Virus record (IMG/VR): IMGVR_UViG_3300028832_000123
Location: 1-64,000 of that record
Reading direction: 5' to 3' (one strand)
DNA: 64,000 nucleotides
Origin: a virus
Lineage: Duplodnaviria; Caudoviricetes
Under the pieces are notes generated by a model that was given only the letters and a program-made list of their open reading frames with translations, was not told the origin of the DNA and ran no database searches. The translations under genes and the position numbers were made by a program. This document shows, one piece after another, positions 5,804 to 31,440 of this stretch (the first letter of the stretch is position 1; every line of letters starts with the position of its first letter).

Positions 5804-7711
5804 TTAGAACGGCATATCCGGATCCTCCACGGCAACATAACTCCTGTATGCTTCACGTTCAGCGTCAGACGCAGATGCCGTGTCTCCGGAAATGCGAAGA
5901 GCAATGCACCTGGCTCTTCCGTTTGGCAATGTCTTGCGAACGGTTAACCTGCGCTCGTCTCCTCTGCCGTGATCCTCAAACTCAAGCATGTTGTGGAGCT
6001 TTGCCCAGTTAAGGAACGGCTTTAATGCGTAGCCATTGTTCTTCAGAACATTTTCAAATACGTTCTTATTGATATACGCAATGTCACCTTCAATAACGCC
6101 CCAGAATTCACCATTGTTGCTGTCAACAGATTCGAATCGCCTTGGGTTCTGATCTATCCACCCGATAAGGAACTCATAGCACCGTCTGTTGATGTCAGAT
6201 TCTTCCTTGGTGATCAGGAATTCTTTCAGTTCGTCTGAAGTCAGGTTGTTCCCGTCCTTAAAGATCGCCATGGTCGCCAGTGCATCAGCTGCCAACAGGA
6301 TTGATGCGGACAGCACCTGCTTACCGTCAATGCCGTCAGAAAGTTCTTTGTAATACTTCTTCTGGAGTTGCTTCAGGGCGTTAATGATCTCTTTGCTTGA
6401 GATTGCATCGACAAATTTCTTTCCAGCGAATCCGTAGTTTTCTTTCAGCAGGGCTGCCGTTTCCCGTGCAGTCTCATCATCCTCGAACAACGGCTGATTC
6501 TTGTAGTTAACCTCAATGGTACGTACCGCAGCGCCACCGCCGGAGTTGCTCTGGATGATCGGCGTTTCTCCGGTCGTTATGATGCACGTTGACCACCTCT
6601 TCTGGAGCTGAAGTCCGCCTTCTTTTGCGCCACGGCCCTTGCTGACACCTTCGCACAGCATATAGATAATGTCATCGAAGTTCCTGCGGTTGTCATTGAT
6701 CACCTGCAACTCGTCAAGCATGACAGGAAGATTACAGCAGAAGGCGGCATGCAGTTCAAAGCTGACTCGTGTACCGCTGAATGTTTTTGCCAGTCCGCCA
6801 AGCTCCGGATTGCCCCAGATGCTCGCTGCAAGCATAAGCCCTACCGTCTTACCGCAACCCTTCTCGCCCCAAAGGTGTACAAAAAATGGAAGAGCGTCAA
6901 GGAGCTTAACCAAAGGCGCTGCGAACCCTGCAGCCAGTGCGATCCTCGCCGGAACGGAGTCTCCTGCACGAACCTTCTTTGCCAGGTCCATCCATGTCTG
7001 CTCGTCTCCGGTTGGTTTAAGCTCACGATATACCTTATCGAACTCAACACTCTCTCCGTCATATGTGATATCGTCCACGTATGGCATAAACCGCCCGTCA
7101 GCGAGCCATCCCATATGTGATACTGAATTTTGTATAGGCAGGTCATCATAGTTTTTGCTTTCGAGAAGGCTCATAAAGCGCACGACTTCCTTGGCGTTCT
7201 CGGAGTTAACAGCCACATCCTGCTTGGACAGGCCAACTATCTTCTGGGCAGAGGATAATTGCTCACGGGACGCCGTAATAGTCTTCCACTTCCCGCTCTT
7301 ACCACGCTGAAACGCAATCTCAAGCTTGGCTTCGAGCGTTTCAATATTGGTTACACGCTTTATCGGCATAATCGGATGTGATATAACCTCGACCTCCATG
7401 CCGAATTCGTTAATGCGGGTCACTCTGTCCGTGCATGTATAGGATCCGCAGCGCAACGTAACAGGCTGATTCTCGAACATGGTGTCAGCGCTGATATCAT
7501 CTATGGAAATCTCCTTGCGCTGTGATGCAATGTAGGATTTCCACATTGCCATGAAACCTTTGAAGCCAAGTGACAATGCCATGTCACGGGTCTTCTGAAT
7601 CATCTGTTGCTGAATGAACGGATTCTTTTCCTTGTATATGGCGGCGTATGGTTTGTCTGTTGTAAAGTCTTCCAGTACATATTGTTCTACGAGAGGTACA
7701 GCTTCACTCAA
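5804..7711 (-). CDS. DUF927-family replicative helicase/ATPase
   Basis: HMGW motif, Walker A GEKGCGKT, Walker B VMLDE, GVSKGRG, IITTGE; acidic C-terminus ending DMPF. Confidence 0.85.
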   Translation of the reverse strand: MSEAVPLVEQYVLEDFTTDKPYAAIYKEKNPFIQQQMIQKTRDMALSLGFKGFMAMWKSYIASQRKEISIDDISADTMFENQPVTLRCGSYTCTDRVTRINEFGMEVEVISHPIMPIKRVTNIETLEAKLEIAFQRGKSGKWKTITASREQLSSAQKIVGLSKQDVAVNSENAKEVVRFMSLLESKNYDDLPIQNSVSHMGWLADGRFMPYVDDITYDGESVEFDKVYRELKPTGDEQTWMDLAKKVRAGDSVPARIALAAGFAAPLVKLLDALPFFVHLWGEKGCGKTVGLMLAASIWGNPELGGLAKTFSGTRVSFELHAAFCCNLPVMLDELQVINDNRRNFDDIIYMLCEGVSKGRGAKEGGLQLQKRWSTCIITTGETPIIQSNSGGGAAVRTIEVNYKNQPLFEDDETARETAALLKENYGFAGKKFVDAISSKEIINALKQLQKKYYKELSDGIDGKQVLSASILLAADALATMAIFKDGNNLTSDELKEFLITKEESDINRRCYEFLIGWIDQNPRRFESVDSNNGEFWGVIEGDIAYINKNVFENVLKNNGYALKPFLNWAKLHNMLEFEDHGRGDERRLTVRKTLPNGRARCIALRISGDTASASDAEREAYRSYVAVEDPDMPF

Positions 7712-27102: not shown

Positions 27103-27453
27103 ATGCGTACATTTGGCGAGAATTTGCGAGAATTGCGTAAAAGCAGAGGATACAGTCAGGAGAAGTTTGCGGAAGTAATAGGAACAAAGCAGGTCAATGT
27201 CAGCGCATGGGAACTTGGCACACGTGTACCGTACCTTGCGACGATCCGTGGCATTGCCGAAACCTTTAAGGTTCCGCTTTCCTCCCTGATATCCATCGAG
27301 CAGACAGGACTTGACGAAGACTACATAAGTTCGGTTTCGGAAGCGATCAAGACCGAACCGAAACTGCGGGAGATCCTTGACAAGATCCTGTACATGCCTT
27401 CCTCTGACCTTGACGCTTTACTCGGAATCATTAACGCAATGACAAAGAAATGA
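27103..27453 (+). CDS. CI-like XRE repressor
   Basis: FGENLRELRKSRGYSQEKFAEVIG....VSAWELGTRVP. Confidence 0.9.
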   Translation: MRTFGENLRELRKSRGYSQEKFAEVIGTKQVNVSAWELGTRVPYLATIRGIAETFKVPLSSLISIEQTGLDEDYISSVSEAIKTEPKLREILDKILYMPSSDLDALLGIINAMTKK

Positions 27454-28580
27454 ATTGTATCAAATGTAAAGCCATTATTCCAGATGGATCCGCATACTGC
27501 AACTACTGCGGAAAGAAACAGTCTGTTGAAAAAAAGCGCTCCAGAAAGACCCGTGGCAATGGGATGGGATGCGCTTATCGCCGTGGGCAGACATGGACCG
27601 CTTGCGTAACAATCGGATGGAAAACTCCTGCTGACCCGTCCAAACCGAAAACACCTATCCGGCGCACGAAGGGCGGTTTCCCGTCGAAGAAGGAAGCAAT
27701 CGCATACTGTCCAGCCCTGCTTGTGGGCGGGATCGCAAAGCGACAGGAAGCCCCAAGACTGTCAGAGTACTGGAAGACATACTCTGAAGGGCGTATGCTT
27801 ACACTCGGAAAGAATACACAGTCCGCATACCGTACCGCATGGAAGAAACTGAGGGCCGTACATGATATTCGTGTAGACAGTATTACTGTTGAACTTTTGC
27901 AGAACACAATTGACGAAACGTGTCATTCACACGACACTGCCGGAGACTGCAAAAGTTTATTATCCAATTTATTTGCGCTTGCAGGGGCGGAACAAACCGC
28001 AAACAGTTCCCTGCCTTCCTTTATTGTATTGCCAGCCTATGCGGAAAAGGAACGGGAAGTCTTTACTGCTGAAGAGCAGGTCGCTTTATGGAAAGCATAT
28101 GATAACGGAGACATTCGTGCAGCCGTACCGCTTCTTATGATCGCTACAGGTATGATGCCAGGTGAAATGCAACAGCTGAAGGCAGAGAACATAGACATCA
28201 ACGGAAGGGTTATCGTGCGATCCGGATTGAAGACAGCTGTACGGAAAAGCACACCGATAGTTTTGTCGGACTCGATTACTCCGGTTGTGCGGGATCTGAT
28301 TGAAAACGCACAGCTGTCCGGATATCTTTGGAAACGTGACGAGAAAGCATGGTATAAAAACTACTATGATATCCTTGAGCTGTCCGGATGCCGTCGCCTG
28401 ACTCCGTACTGTTGCCGGCACACGTGCGCAAGCAATCTTTCCATTGATAAAAACATTCCATCGCAGACAATCCGTAAGGTTATGCGATGGAGCACGGCAA
28501 AGATGCTGGATCGGTACAGTCATCCGTCTACTGAGGATGCACTCGCTGCGGTGAACACGGTCACACGCCCTGATGTATAG
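27450..28580 (+). CDS. int: tyrosine integrase
   Basis: N-terminal Zn ribbon and arm domain; TGMMPGEM (catalytic Arg position reads M/P), LKT, YCCRHT, VMRWSTAKMLDRYSH. Confidence 0.9.
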   Translation: MNCIKCKAIIPDGSAYCNYCGKKQSVEKKRSRKTRGNGMGCAYRRGQTWTACVTIGWKTPADPSKPKTPIRRTKGGFPSKKEAIAYCPALLVGGIAKRQEAPRLSEYWKTYSEGRMLTLGKNTQSAYRTAWKKLRAVHDIRVDSITVELLQNTIDETCHSHDTAGDCKSLLSNLFALAGAEQTANSSLPSFIVLPAYAEKEREVFTAEEQVALWKAYDNGDIRAAVPLLMIATGMMPGEMQQLKAENIDINGRVIVRSGLKTAVRKSTPIVLSDSITPVVRDLIENAQLSGYLWKRDEKAWYKNYYDILELSGCRRLTPYCCRHTCASNLSIDKNIPSQTIRKVMRWSTAKMLDRYSHPSTEDALAAVNTVTRPDV

Positions 28581-28812
28581 TTTACATACTGCTTACATCA
28601 ACGGATGTGAACGTTGATTTTACTATATTCTTATTTCCTCTGCTAAGGGAGTAGACGGGTTAAACCGTGCCCGGGTTCAAATCCCGGCTTCTCCGCTTAA
28701 AACCCTGCAAGATCAACGCTTGCAGGGTTTTGTTATGTTGTAGTATTTATACTGTTCATTGTCATAAATTGTCGTAAGTGGTGTTCTACTGTTTACACTA
28801 CTGTTTACATCA
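28580..28812 (+). other. attP: core = 3' half of tRNA-Ser(GCT) (~28640-28696) flanked by arm-type repeats
   Basis: CTGCTAA anticodon loop, long variable arm, T arm CCGGG-TTCAAAT-CCCGG, acceptor 3' strand CTTCTCCG, no 5' half; GTTTACA/GCTTACA repeats at 28580-28600 and 28787-28812. Confidence 0.85.
28701..28731 (+). terminator. intrinsic terminator after the attP tRNA half
   Basis: AACCCTGCAAG-atcaacg-CTTGCAGGGTT followed by TT. Confidence 0.8.
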
Positions 28813-29787
28813 TTCCTCATACCCAGCCATGTATTTTGACAGGTCAAGTTCTTCTCCTCGTGACGGGCAAAGGAACACCCCGTCATCTTCCAACCTGTCA
28901 ACATATGGTGTGAATTGTTCTTTTAATAATCTGTTCAGTTCAGGAACAATTCTTACCGGCTTTGCGTTCAATATGCTATCAAGACACCATTCACAGTCTC
29001 CGAATATCCGGCTGAATGATGATTTTGTCAAAACAACATTGCGTTCCTGAAGCAACTTGATCATGGCCCGTGGGAATTCAAGGTGCAACGCAAAGCATTC
29101 CGCTTCTGTTGTTGCTTTATCTGATCCTATAATATTGAAACCATGCCCAAGATAAATATGTCCAAGTTCAATAGCAATTGCAAGCTTTAGCTTTCCGAGA
29201 GGAGCATTGCGCCTGACAGCAAACAGATAATGTTCGTGTTCTCTATCGTCAGCAATAACAGATGTCATGACCATGTCGCCCTGCTGACTGCTCATTACTG
29301 CGTTTGTTTCACACAGGTCATCCAGTTCCGATTCATCTTCAAATGATACAATGGAAGCACGTTCTGATGCCTGAAGAATCTGTTGAGGATATATTGGCGT
29401 TCTCGATACGTTGAATTTAATCAGCGCACGGGCTGCCTGTGTTGCTGCGGTAGTACAGTCTATGGTTTTCTTTCCTGTTTCTTTCCAATAGATTGTATTG
29501 TTCACCATTTCAAATTGGTGGATCAACGGTGTACGTAATTTATCTGCAACGATTTCAAGGTTGTCTCCTGGATCGCCCAGTCTTTCGCTGGACCAGCCCA
29601 TGAGGTACGGTCTGCTTACATTAAATAAAATAGCAAGCTGATGAACACGTTCCGGCGGGATGTTCGTGATAAGACCATGTTCATACTTATATACTGTGGC
29701 TCGCTGAATACCCAAATATGTAGCAATGTCATTGAGTGACATTCCTTTTTCTGTTCTCAATTCTCTTAATCTGTCCGCAAATGTCAT
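28810..29787 (-). CDS. XRE HTH fused to an ImmA/IrrE-like domain
   Basis: N-terminal HTH (FADRLRELRTEKGMSLNDIA); C-terminal LAIAIELGHIYLGH...EAECFA, HExxH degenerate. Confidence 0.75.
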   Translation of the reverse strand: MTFADRLRELRTEKGMSLNDIATYLGIQRATVYKYEHGLITNIPPERVHQLAILFNVSRPYLMGWSSERLGDPGDNLEIVADKLRTPLIHQFEMVNNTIYWKETGKKTIDCTTAATQAARALIKFNVSRTPIYPQQILQASERASIVSFEDESELDDLCETNAVMSSQQGDMVMTSVIADDREHEHYLFAVRRNAPLGKLKLAIAIELGHIYLGHGFNIIGSDKATTEAECFALHLEFPRAMIKLLQERNVVLTKSSFSRIFGDCEWCLDSILNAKPVRIVPELNRLLKEQFTPYVDRLEDDGVFLCPSRGEELDLSKYMAGYEE

Positions 29788-29947
29788 AACTGTAACCTCC
29801 TACGTTTCATATTATACTACCGCCTACATTAAAAGTCACAATGTAATAAAATTTTAATACTTTTATACTTTACAAGTTACAATTATTCTGTATAATGTGT
29901 ATCGTAATAAGTCACGTATACTAAATAAGTTACAAAGGAGAATCTGC

Positions 29948-30217
29948 ATGAACATCGAATCTGTATTTCTGAACTTGGTGGATGCTGGACTTATGGCGAA
30001 AAAGATGGACAAGGCAATGCAGGACGCTGGGTTCGATAACAACCCGTACTTTGAAATCTACGGTTGTGTGGCCCAGGCGATTATTCACATGCTTGGTGAA
30101 GCAGAAAAGGACTTTGAGAATACGGATGCTTGCTATGCTCTGTCTGATAAGATCCACGGCAGGAAGGAACGTGTGCAGTATCTCGTTGATGCTTATAATA
30201 AAGTTTCATCTCAATGA
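29948..30217 (+). CDS. unknown ~90-aa protein, paralogue 2 of 3
   Basis: SD AAAGGAG before ATG 29948; upstream TTTACA-16-TATAAT (29869-29896). Confidence 0.75.
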   Translation: MNIESVFLNLVDAGLMAKKMDKAMQDAGFDNNPYFEIYGCVAQAIIHMLGEAEKDFENTDACYALSDKIHGRKERVQYLVDAYNKVSSQ

Positions 30218-30292: not shown

Positions 30293-30377
30293 GAGGGATT
30301 GGCAGAGTGGTTGAATGCACCGGTTTGCTAAACCGGAGTGGCGCAAGTCACCGCAGGTTCAAATCCTGCATCTCTCG
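30293..30377 (+). tRNA. tRNA-Ser(GCT)
   Basis: Acceptor GAGGGAT/ATCTCTC, anticodon arm CCGGT-TTGCTAA-ACCGG, long variable arm, GGTTCAAATCC T arm. Confidence 0.95.
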
Positions 30378-30382
30378 CTTTC

Positions 30383-30599
30383 GTTACGGTGGCGGAATAG
30401 GTAGACGCTATAACATATAGCATTGACAGCCCAACATTCACTGGTACATTGAGGGTGTCCGGCAGAGTAAATATGACCGATAGGGAATGTGGCGCAGTGG
30501 ATCGATATGGCATGAGTCGGATAAAGCCATAACGTGAAAACGTCAGAAGATACTTCAATGTATGTGAGGTGACAGAAATTCAAATCCTCACCCGTAACG
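30383..30599 (+). ncRNA. tRNA-like structured RNA with large insertion
   Basis: Acceptor-like GTTACGG/CCGTAAC, Leu-type D arm GCG-GAATAGGTAGA-CGC, T-arm-like TGAGG...TTCAAAT-CCTCA, ~150-nt internal region with several helices. Confidence 0.7.
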
Positions 30600-30605
30600 A
30601 ATCAC

Positions 30606-30693
30606 GGTGGATTGACCGAGTGGTTTAAGGTAGCTGTCTTGAAAACAGCAGGTCCGAAAGGATCCGTGGGTTCAAATCCTACATCCACCGCCA
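30606..30693 (+). tRNA. tRNA-Ser(TGA)
   Basis: GGTGGAT/ATCCACC, loop CTTGAAA, long variable arm, encoded CCA. Confidence 0.95.
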
Positions 30694-30694
30694 T

Positions 30695-30767
30695 GCTTTT
30701 GTAGCTCAATTGGCAGAGCAATCGCCTTGTAAGCGATAGGCTGTGAGTTCGAGTCTCACCAGAAGCC
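30695..30767 (+). tRNA. tRNA-Thr(TGT)
   Basis: GCTTTTG/CAGAAGC, ATCGC-CTTGTAA-GCGAT, GTTCGA T loop. Confidence 0.93.
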
Positions 30768-30773
30768 CATTAT

Positions 30774-30847
30774 AGAGGTGTCGCCAAGATGGTTAAGGCA
30801 TGGGACTTTGACTCCCATATTCGCAGGTTCGACTCCTGCCACCTCTG
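30774..30847 (+). tRNA. tRNA-Gln(TTG)
   Basis: AGAGGTG/CACCTCT, TGGGA-CTTTGAC-TCCCA. Confidence 0.93.
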
Positions 30848-30917
30848 CGACAGAGCGACCGCTTTGTGCGGAGCCAGGATGTGCGACCGGAAACGGCGAC
30901 GGCATCCGTCCCCCTTT

Positions 30918-30989
30918 GGGGCATTAACTCAATGGTAGAGTGTCTGCTTTGCAAGCAGAATGTTGCAGGTTCAAATCCTGTATGCTCCA
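30918..30989 (+). tRNA. tRNA-Ala(TGC)
   Basis: GGGGCAT/ATGCTCC with G3:U70, CTGCT-TTGCA-AGCAG anticodon arm. Confidence 0.93.
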
Positions 30990-30994
30990 CTTAC

Positions 30995-31068
30995 GCTCCC
31001 ATAGTCCAATTGGAAGAGACATCGGATTTAAGCTCCGACATGTCAGGGTTCGAGTCCCTGTGGGAGTA
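30995..31068 (+). tRNA. tRNA-Leu(TAA) with short variable loop
   Basis: GCTCCCA/TGGGAGT, TCGGA-TTTAAGC-TCCGA, 5-nt variable loop, CAGGG-TTCGAGT-CCCTG. Confidence 0.8.
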
Positions 31069-31118
31069 CTACAGTCACATAAACATGTGGCTCATAAAAT
31101 AATATGGAGGGATTGCCC

Positions 31119-31403
31119 ATGAATATGGAGAAGGCTTTAACGGAACTTGTCAGCGCTGTAAAAACGGCAAAAAAGATGGACGAAGCAATGCGGGAAGCAG
31201 GATACGAAAATAACCCGTACTTTGACATCTGGGGAAACATTGCAGAAGCGGTCTATGCATTGCTCGATGAGCACACAGATACATTCGACAGCTCTGTAAC
31301 AGCGCAAGTCATCAGAGATATGGCAAACGTCCCAATCAACAAAGCCGTAGATATCCTTTGGGCAGTCTTCAAGCGAAAAGAACTGTTATCCGATCCAAAG
31401 TAA
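31119..31403 (+). CDS. unknown ~94-aa protein, paralogue 3 of 3
   Basis: GGAGG SD before ATG 31119; strong similarity to 29948-30217 (AKKMD.AM..AG..NNPYF.I.G). Confidence 0.75.
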   Translation: MNMEKALTELVSAVKTAKKMDEAMREAGYENNPYFDIWGNIAEAVYALLDEHTDTFDSSVTAQVIRDMANVPINKAVDILWAVFKRKELLSDPK

Positions 31404-31440
31404 AAATCACCCCACTCCAGTCTGGAGTGGGGCTTTTTGT
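31404..31440. terminator. bidirectional terminator
   Basis: AAAA..CCCCACTCCAG-(tct)-GGAGTGGGG-CTTTTT between convergent genes. Confidence 0.8.

Follow-up and report, generated by a model that had tools for sequence, protein, structure and literature searches.

A predicted family of phage RNAs with a leucine-tRNA-like shell and differing inserts in place of the anticodon arm

The locus and the architecture of the element

The window analysed here comprises positions 1 to 64,000 of the viral record IMGVR_UViG_3300028832_000123 and covers most of this 79.5-kb record, which has direct terminal repeats. Genes for an integrase and a CI-like repressor are followed by a phage tRNA cluster (Table 1), in which six tRNAs (Ser-GCU, Ser-UGA, Thr, Gln, Ala and a 75-nt Leu-UAA) were identified by ARAGORN and Rfam. 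Neither of the two gave a call between 30378 and 30606, the interval that holds the gene of 217 bases described here. The preceding tRNA-Ser ends at 30377/8 and the next tRNA-Ser begins at 30606, such that the element is 4-6 nt away from each of them, in agreement with the tRNA-like spacing that had been pointed out in the original prediction. As judged from its consensus match, the promoter upstream of the cluster probably drives an operon which includes the tRNA array. Two paralogous ORFs of about 90 amino acids, without Pfam match, bracket the array within one promoter-terminator unit.

In a blastn search of the array against 50,697 phage records, matches were obtained only to the flanking tRNAs, and the relatives found via the neighbouring CI-like repressor carried no array. 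Two of the relatives of the repressor locus (L005, 9514-9864, and L006, 7101-7451) gave an ARAGORN tmRNA call with the tag DEEEIYCELKAA. The tRNA-Gln and tRNA-Ala genes of the array are separated by a G+C-rich gap of 69 nt (30849-30917), the other gaps measuring 1-7 nt; this gap can form two hairpins, which were not above shuffles (z = -1.32), and had no Rfam match. The Leu-anticodon tRNAs (UAA, CAA) seen in the window (30995-31069) and in another locus (L270, 6428-6501 and 6767-6840) are only 74-75 nt in length and do not have a long variable arm.

Table 1 Features in and around the tRNA array, with the parts of the 217-nt element.
Feature	Position	Strand	Description
Integrase	27450-28580		
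CI-like HTH repressor	28810-29787	-	
Sigma-70-type promoter	29869-29896	+	TTTACA-16-TATAAT; 11 of 12 consensus matches; assigned by consensus match alone
89-aa ORF	29948-30217		Downstream of the promoter
tRNA array	30293-31069		
Element, whole gene	30383-30599	+	217 bases
Acceptor stem, 5' strand	30383-30389	+	GTTACGG; pairs with 30592-30598; covaries across the family
U8 G9 and Leu-type D arm	30390-30408	+	U8 G9 at 30390-30391
D arm	30392-30408	+	3-bp stem GCG/CGC, 11-nt loop GAATAGGTAGA; class II tRNA-Leu pattern
Hairpin H1	30409-30419	+	TATA-ACA-TATA; in the place of the anticodon arm; 3-nt loop, without anticodon; by eye and centroid fold
Linker between H1 and long arm	30420-30444	+	Contains ACATTC (30434-30439)
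Long arm	30445-30562	+	In the place of the class II variable arm; closing helix TACATTGA/TCAATGTA (30445-30452 with 30555-30562) plus GTGTC/GATAC
Internal hairpin of long arm	30506-30531	+	TATGGC/GCCATA
Internal hairpin of long arm	30532-30543	+	ACGT-GAAA-ACGT
U48-equivalent	30563	+	U directly 5' of the T stem
T arm	30564-30591	+	6-bp stem GTGAGG (30564-30569)/CCTCAC (30586-30591)
T loop	30570-30585	+	16 nt, TGACAGAAATTCAAAT = UG-ACAGAAAUU-CAAAU; 9 nt added to the usual UGCAAAU
Acceptor stem, 3' strand	30592-30598	+	CCGTAAC
Discriminator	30599	+	G; CCA not encoded
99-aa ORF	31104-31403		Paralogue of the ORF at 29948-30217
Intrinsic-terminator-like hairpin	31410-31432	+	Closes the putative operon

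The RNA of this gene has the upper body of a leucine tRNA and no anticodon arm. The acceptor stem GTTACGG/CCGTAAC of 7 bp, which had been predicted from the sequence, is present and covaries in the family described below, and the predicted Leu-type D arm is found as GCG-GAATAGGTAGA-CGC. The stretch that replaces the anticodon and variable arms, originally estimated at about 150 nt, measures 155 nt (30409-30563), and no anticodon arm with a 5-bp stem and a 7-nt loop was found in the element or in the short members of the family. H1, the small hairpin at the beginning of this stretch, can be extended into the D stem by GC/GC. With regard to the T arm, the 9 extra nucleotides noted in the original prediction are real, but the stem has 6 bp rather than 5 and the insertion is located between UG and CAAAU. 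Acceptor and T stems thus stack to 13 bp (7 + 6). Pair 3-70 is U-A, which bears out the reported absence of G3:U70.

A common shell with unrelated inserts

A homologue search had been proposed along with the original prediction. By means of pattern scans, we recovered more than 140 distinct relatives from viral, metagenome and MAG contigs, all with a common shell and with unrelated inserts of 28-190 nt. A scan of viral contigs for the 16-nt T loop yielded 97 matches, about 20 of which had the complete architecture. The parsed set comprised 141 distinct members of 90-217 nt plus one outlier of 348 nt, and the element is the longest cleanly parsed member; its own genome carries a single copy. 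The element follows the plan of the family, i.e. acceptor strand, UG, a D arm of the GCGGAAUAGGUAGACGC type, insert, AU, a T stem of 6 bp with a GG/CC end, and second acceptor strand. A family model built here (R1) matched the element twice, at 30504-30599 with 45.6 bits and at 30383-30448 with 29.5 bits, because the long insert splits the match. We are almost certain that the element belongs to this family of phage RNAs with a tRNA-Leu shell.

Covariation, likewise suggested as a check, was assessed with a set of 28 diverse short members. Of the cells in their three shell helices, 98.4% were paired, compared to 33-46% when the partners were slid, and acceptor, D and T stems showed compensatory changes on both sides at 12 of the 16 shell pairs. 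Within the D stem, pairs 10-25 and 11-24 covary, with G-C changing to A-U and C-G changing to U-A or A-U, and the T stem occurs as GTGAGG/CCTCAC, GTAAGG/CCTTAC, GTAGGG/CCCTAC, GCAAGG/CCTTGC and CTAGGG/CCCTAG. The acceptor stems differ from locus to locus and yet are complementary if the 5' strand is taken as the 7 nt before the D-arm motif; acceptor pairing was in part a parsing criterion in the larger set, and an unbiased parse agrees. The G-U pairs are on the plus strand of the element, which fits an RNA read from that strand. As for the loops, when only members with a D arm outside the search pattern are counted, about two thirds have GAATAGGTAGA as D loop. The nucleotide before the T stem was T in 141 of 141 members, the unbiased sample for this count being the 65 members of the 16-nt class, as the 7-nt-loop class had been fetched with ATG in the pattern.

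Regarding the distribution of the family, the 20-mer GGTGACAGAAATTCAAATCC was present in only three of 185,579 species genomes, all of them rumen or gut MAGs (Erysipelotrichaceae, Succinivibrio and Lachnospiraceae), and in more than 119 metagenome contigs. We sampled 150 further genomes from the family of the Lachnospiraceae MAG and obtained a match in one of them only; thus, the family is mainly phage-borne.

In an unbiased scan of viral contigs, in which the D arm and the commonest T stem were fixed and the loop was left free at 5-22 nt, at least 97 loci were found. Among the 97 matches listed, the T loop was TGCAAAT in 80 cases, TGCGAAT in 8, TGTAAAT in 5 and TTCAAAT in 1, with 1 or 3 extra nucleotides in a few and a 16-nt loop in none. 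UGCAAAU is the T loop usually seen in the family, and the element is part of a minor subfamily, mainly from rumen and gut, whose 16-nt loop in this case keeps the ends of UGCAAAU with 9 nt inserted. All T-loop insertions, be they of 1, 3, 9 or 17 nt, separate UG from CAAAU and are situated at the elbow tip. The 17-nt insertion was detected in a long-loop scan on the minus strand of L326 (4022-4128), where the T loop has 24 nt (TG + 17 nt + CAAAT) and the extra bases can form a small hairpin with CAGAAAU, as in the 16-nt loop of the element. In L034, a member at 6145-6325 combines a D loop enlarged by 53 nt with an unexpanded T loop, TGCAAAT; neighbouring copies in this phage have the 16-nt T loop.

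With regard to the middle of the RNA, many members have a stub hairpin after the D arm, recognised by eye, with a loop of 3-6 nt and often of the form CUUA...UAAG; a 7-nt loop of the anticodon type was absent across the family. The long arm emerges where the variable arm of class II tRNAs does, and the U before the T stem fits U48. A distance of exactly 2 nt (AU) separates the helix of this arm from the T stem in 90 of the 108 non-redundant insert types compared to 32 in shuffles, if a complement of 5 nt is considered, and in 42 compared to 4.7 in shuffles for a complement of 7 nt; the signal was lost one nucleotide off this register. As to k-mers enriched in the inserts, only the AAGGUUG junction after the stub hairpin stood out.

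All of the complementarities that the original prediction had assigned to the insert of the element exist, but no insert helix is beyond chance on its own. Pair probabilities were 0.43 for the closing helix, 0.3 for GTGTC/GATAC, 0.85 for TATGGC/GCCATA and 0.87 for ACGT-GAAA-ACGT; the longest uninterrupted stem, of 10 pairs, was equalled in 33 of 200 shuffles, and the fold of the whole element had a z of -1.55. The proposed pseudoknot pairing of ACATTC (30434-30439) with GAATGT (30485-30490), which would cross the long helix, exists as a complementarity without comparative support, and in nested folds it competes with the long helix (pair probabilities of 0.46 vs 0.43). No homologue of this insert was found by blastn against all fetched loci or by a two-block pattern scan of viral contigs. 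The closing helix (30446-30452 with 30555-30561) is in the same register as the long-arm helix of the family. Homology of position supports the long helix of the original prediction, and does not do so for the other helices of the insert. Antisense matches of the element within the window were at chance level, the longest being 11 nt. A promoter-like site, TTGACA-16-TACATT with TG, is found inside the insert at 30423-30450; 8 such sites were counted in the region compared to 4.5 expected, and this one may be due to chance.

The 141 members represent 116 insert types. Inserts are conserved inside a type while the acceptor stems differ (L100/L187/L195), and in some phages (L034, L152 and L163) 3-6 copies whose inserts differ form an array. 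The cores of two members, L232 3665-3762 and L233 4758-4855, are 100% identical from acceptor G6 to C67; their flanks are unrelated, and their acceptor pairs 1-5 differ, each set being self-complementary. This identity is direct evidence of cassette exchange; most simply, the invariant sequences of the D and T arms would serve as the sites at which cores recombine. In addition to 3-4 shell RNAs, the 13-kb locus L163 has 20 Rfam tRNA matches, a tmRNA (RF00023, 94 bits) and a cow-rumen-3 RNA (RF03083).

These data bear on the main rival to the interpretation that we prefer (see below), namely that the shell is a processing or stability handle, like the 'tRNA scaffold' used in the laboratory, and that the differing inserts do differing jobs, e.g. 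as sRNA, aptamer or RNA decoy. The number of insert types, the shared core of L232 and L233 and the restriction of expansions to the periphery, i.e. long arm, T-loop tip and, in L034, D loop, all speak for such a division of labour, and the conservation of inserts within types and the multi-copy arrays fit a cargo better than a pure shell decoy. On the other side, the sequence of the shell is far more conserved than its shape needs, with a widespread D loop, no Rfam family was matched by the inserts of the element and of the members in the six other loci scanned, the insert of the element has neither a homologue nor an antisense match of more than 11 nt in the window, and the shortest members carry an insert of 28-40 nt only. 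We consider this explanation possible, but would not expect it to be the correct one.

A same-strand tRNA was found at a distance of 1-9 nt from 25 of the 141 members, so that the release by RNase P and RNase Z suggested in the original prediction is plausible. Such a tRNA was present within 500 nt of 52 members. The locus of 86 members, often short, contains no same-strand tRNA, and no conserved protein family that would hint at a partner was found in the neighbourhood of the members. The many solitary members between protein genes, the position of the element inside an mRNA-tRNA operon and the movement of cores between loci would all be expected if the RNA were mere punctuation or a selfish element, i.e. 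a tRNA-derived module that directs RNase P/Z cuts or spreads by recombination and has no role in trans. However, ordinary tRNAs or simple hairpins would suffice for this, the flanking tRNAs already give cut sites in this array, and selection on the folded RNA is implied by the long arms having been maintained and by the hinge nucleotides and the odd T loop being strictly conserved. We regard a role of this kind as improbable.

Comparison with known RNA classes

Searches of the element against Rfam 15, at gathering as well as permissive thresholds, returned nothing even at E up to 10, and the members of six other loci returned nothing up to E = 1. ARAGORN made no call on the element or on the members in the 12 loci checked. 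The claim of an unrecognised class of non-coding RNA therefore stands as far as Rfam 15 and ARAGORN are concerned, but its design has a precedent in RNA1 of phage T5 (see below). No description of the family was found in the literature searched; in a 2023 catalogue of 10,006 viral candidate RNAs, the available text mentions tRNA-like candidates only where they overlap with ARAGORN.

The element shares with tRNA-Leu (RF00005) the acceptor stem, U8, the 3-bp D stem with a GAAU.GGUAGA loop, U48, the T arm and, immediately upstream of the T stem, a long arm in the manner of a class II variable arm. It differs from tRNA-Leu by the missing anticodon arm, the T stem of 6 bp, G55 and the A-U-rich end of the acceptor stem, and the discriminator is variable in the family. 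A canonical tRNA was rejected based on the 6-bp T stem, the 16-nt loop, the missing anticodon arm and the lack of a RF00005 match at E up to 10, and the element is very probably unable to decode. A tmRNA resembles it by having a tRNA-like domain formed from both ends around a large structured middle; this class was rejected as well, since pair 3-70 is U-A, ARAGORN detected no tag frame, RF00023 did not match and the middle is not conserved.

An intron-bearing tRNA gene, in which the 155 nt would be an intervening sequence whose removal yields a decoding tRNA, is suggested by the tRNA-Leu-like shell, and phage tRNA genes with introns do exist, including group I introns in tRNA-Leu. Against this, no ribozyme or intron model matched (E up to 10 for the element, E = 1 for the members in six other loci), the inserts are unrelated between members and thus have no shared catalytic core, no conserved halves of an anticodon stem are found beside the insert, and the shortest members, with 90-97 nt, have the length of a tRNA without having a 7-nt anticodon loop. 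We judge this explanation highly improbable. In particular, a group I intron host was rejected based on the unrelated inserts and on the lack of a RF00028 match at E up to 10, in line with the original prediction, which had seen no group I intron core. In one insert type of the relatives, the strands CTGATGA...GAAAC had raised the suspicion of a hammerhead; this candidate was dropped because CTGATGA is inside a hairpin, a third member does not have it and Rfam gave no match.

YrlA (RF02553) is likewise a non-coding tRNA mimic with acceptor-, D- and T-like modules and no anticodon, but RF02553 did not match the element. YrlA RNAs are permuted, ending in a Ro-binding stem with the acceptor-like helix closed by a loop, and are linked to rsr/rtcB. 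In contrast, the element ends in its acceptor stem and has no rsr/rtcB-type genes nearby. YrlA is reported to be an anticodon-less tRNA mimic which also occurs in phages (PMC4201824).

The closest known RNAs are stable RNAs of phages T5 and T4. T5 RNA1 (NC_005859, 30501-30644) is annotated as 'tRNA-like stable RNA with unknown functions'. It is part of a phage tRNA cluster and shares the design of the element: an acceptor helix, a D arm of the Leu type (CCGGAATTGGTAGACGG) and a T arm are present, and the anticodon and variable arms are replaced by about 85 nt. Its T stem, however, has the canonical 5 bp and its T loop is UUCAACU. With 19 bits, it scored no better against R1 than true tRNA-Leu genes, and we rejected it as a family member in favour of an analogue or a very distant relative. 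The species 1 and 2 RNAs of T4 (rnaC and rnaD, NC_000866, 70908-71171) are small, stable and encoded at the end of the tRNA cluster of that phage, and rnaC has a canonical T arm and an imperfect acceptor-like helix; unlike the element, they lack a Leu-type D arm. Their best R1 score was 6.6 bits (rnaC, E of about 5), and they too were rejected as members. By analogy, T5 RNA1 and T4 rnaC are a precedent for such RNAs being made and being stable. First described in the 1970s-80s, the tRNA-like stable RNAs of T4 and T5 still lack an assigned function.

Possible functions of the RNA

Our best explanation, which we hold with somewhat less than even confidence, is that the element is a non-decoding mimic of a class II tRNA, excised by the enzymes that process tRNAs and serving as a decoy or competitor by virtue of its upper body. 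Transcription from the promoter at 29869 would cover the RNA along with the rest of the array; the RNA would be released by RNase P together with RNase Z or exonucleases as its tRNA neighbours, tailed with CCA, and would accumulate as a stable L-shaped RNA. It would then act in trans via the tRNA upper body and the acceptor end, either by mimicking or by competing for a host factor that reads tRNAs without regard to the anticodon, candidates being nucleotidyltransferases of the MenT/AbiEii type, toxSAS or LeuRS itself, and the swappable long arm may add specificity or a second activity. It is likely that the RNA is processed and stable; that acting as a decoy or competitor is its actual job is more doubtful.

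Concerning the processing, positions 74-76 are T-rich in the family and C is rare, as suits CCA-less substrates of RNase Z. The acceptor ends are rich in A-U, and G1 is rare in them, which is unlike good RNase P substrates, and the 9-nt insertion at the tip of the elbow should alter the surface that is read by RNase P, T-boxes and the ribosome. Two roles brought up in the original prediction fared less well: a decoy for anticodon nucleases is unlikely, since the family has no 7-nt loop of the anticodon type and the stub loops have 3-6 nt, and a decoy for T-boxes is weakly founded, since there is no anticodon to pair with a specifier. A role as synthetase or upper-body decoy, or as scaffold, seems possible. 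Among the candidate targets, MenT3 extends the 3' ends of tRNAs and uses the long variable arm (PMC11541572), and the toxSAS FaRel2 is described as acting on the CCA end and as implicated in antiphage immunity (PMC11559606).

An alternative to such a decoy is that the RNA is charged by LeuRS (or SerRS), and either donates the aminoacyl group in a non-ribosomal transfer or ties up the synthetase, with the 13-bp stack keeping the RNA off EF-Tu. The stack of 7 + 6 bp is one pair longer than in a canonical tRNA; tRNA-Sec also has a 13-bp stack and is excluded from EF-Tu. LeuRS of E. coli reads the hinge set U8, A14, A15-U48, G18G19, A20a, U54, C56 and A58, and in E. coli a minimal tRNA-Leu that lacks both the anticodon and the variable arm can still be charged (PMC9976931). 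The same Leu-type hinge positions are conserved in our family, and the sequence elements A15-U48, G18G19, A20a, U54:A58 and G19-C56 are all present in the element. In addition, A73 is found in 40 of the 62 members of the UGCAAAU class compared to about 37% A in the flanks. Position 55, however, is G instead of U, which removes one partner of the G18:U55 contact listed as important (PMC9976931), and A73 is far from universal: A makes up 51%, U 29% and G 16% of the discriminators in the family, A falls to the background level of 40% in the 16-nt subfamily, and the element departs from the A73 rule of LeuRS with G73, an antideterminant for the E. coli enzyme (PMC9976931). No linked transferase gene was found either. 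The unconserved discriminator argues against leucylation as a general function, and we regard an aminoacylated carrier or synthetase titrator as quite unlikely. Because of the discriminator and of G55, we favour an upper-body mimic which is not charged or only partly charged.

A more far-reaching version of the mimic, which we put forward as a speculation and consider rather unlikely as a whole, would be that phages use the leucine-tRNA chassis as a modular display platform. Exchangeable modules placed at the variable-arm site, and in this subfamily also at the T-loop tip, would be moved between phages by recombination via the D and T arms, would be processed and protected like tRNAs, and would each neutralise or hijack a different host factor, e.g. 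a defence toxin that reads tRNA ends. If the RNAs are indeed decoys for tRNA-directed defences or carriers of functional modules, they would be both a counter-measure of a kind new for phages and the natural equivalent of the tRNA scaffold used in the laboratory.

Apart from its role, the family shows that a design like that of the T4 and T5 RNAs is widespread among phages whose hosts are gut, rumen or dairy bacteria. It is modular, under strong structural selection and missed by the annotation tools tried here; it thus marks a gap in phage annotation and is probably a missing piece of phage-host RNA biology. The presence of members in cultured phages of Leuconostoc and Latilactobacillus makes the family testable at the bench. 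One unannotated member is located in the cultured Latilactobacillus phage TMW 1.1365 P3 (L323 3002-3105; OQ240257, 11399-11503) and another in the cultured Leuconostoc phage LN34 (L324 1438-1534; KC013027, about 146-250). The 28-mer of the LN34 T arm is also present in 13 further records of Leuconostoc and Liquorilactobacillus phages.
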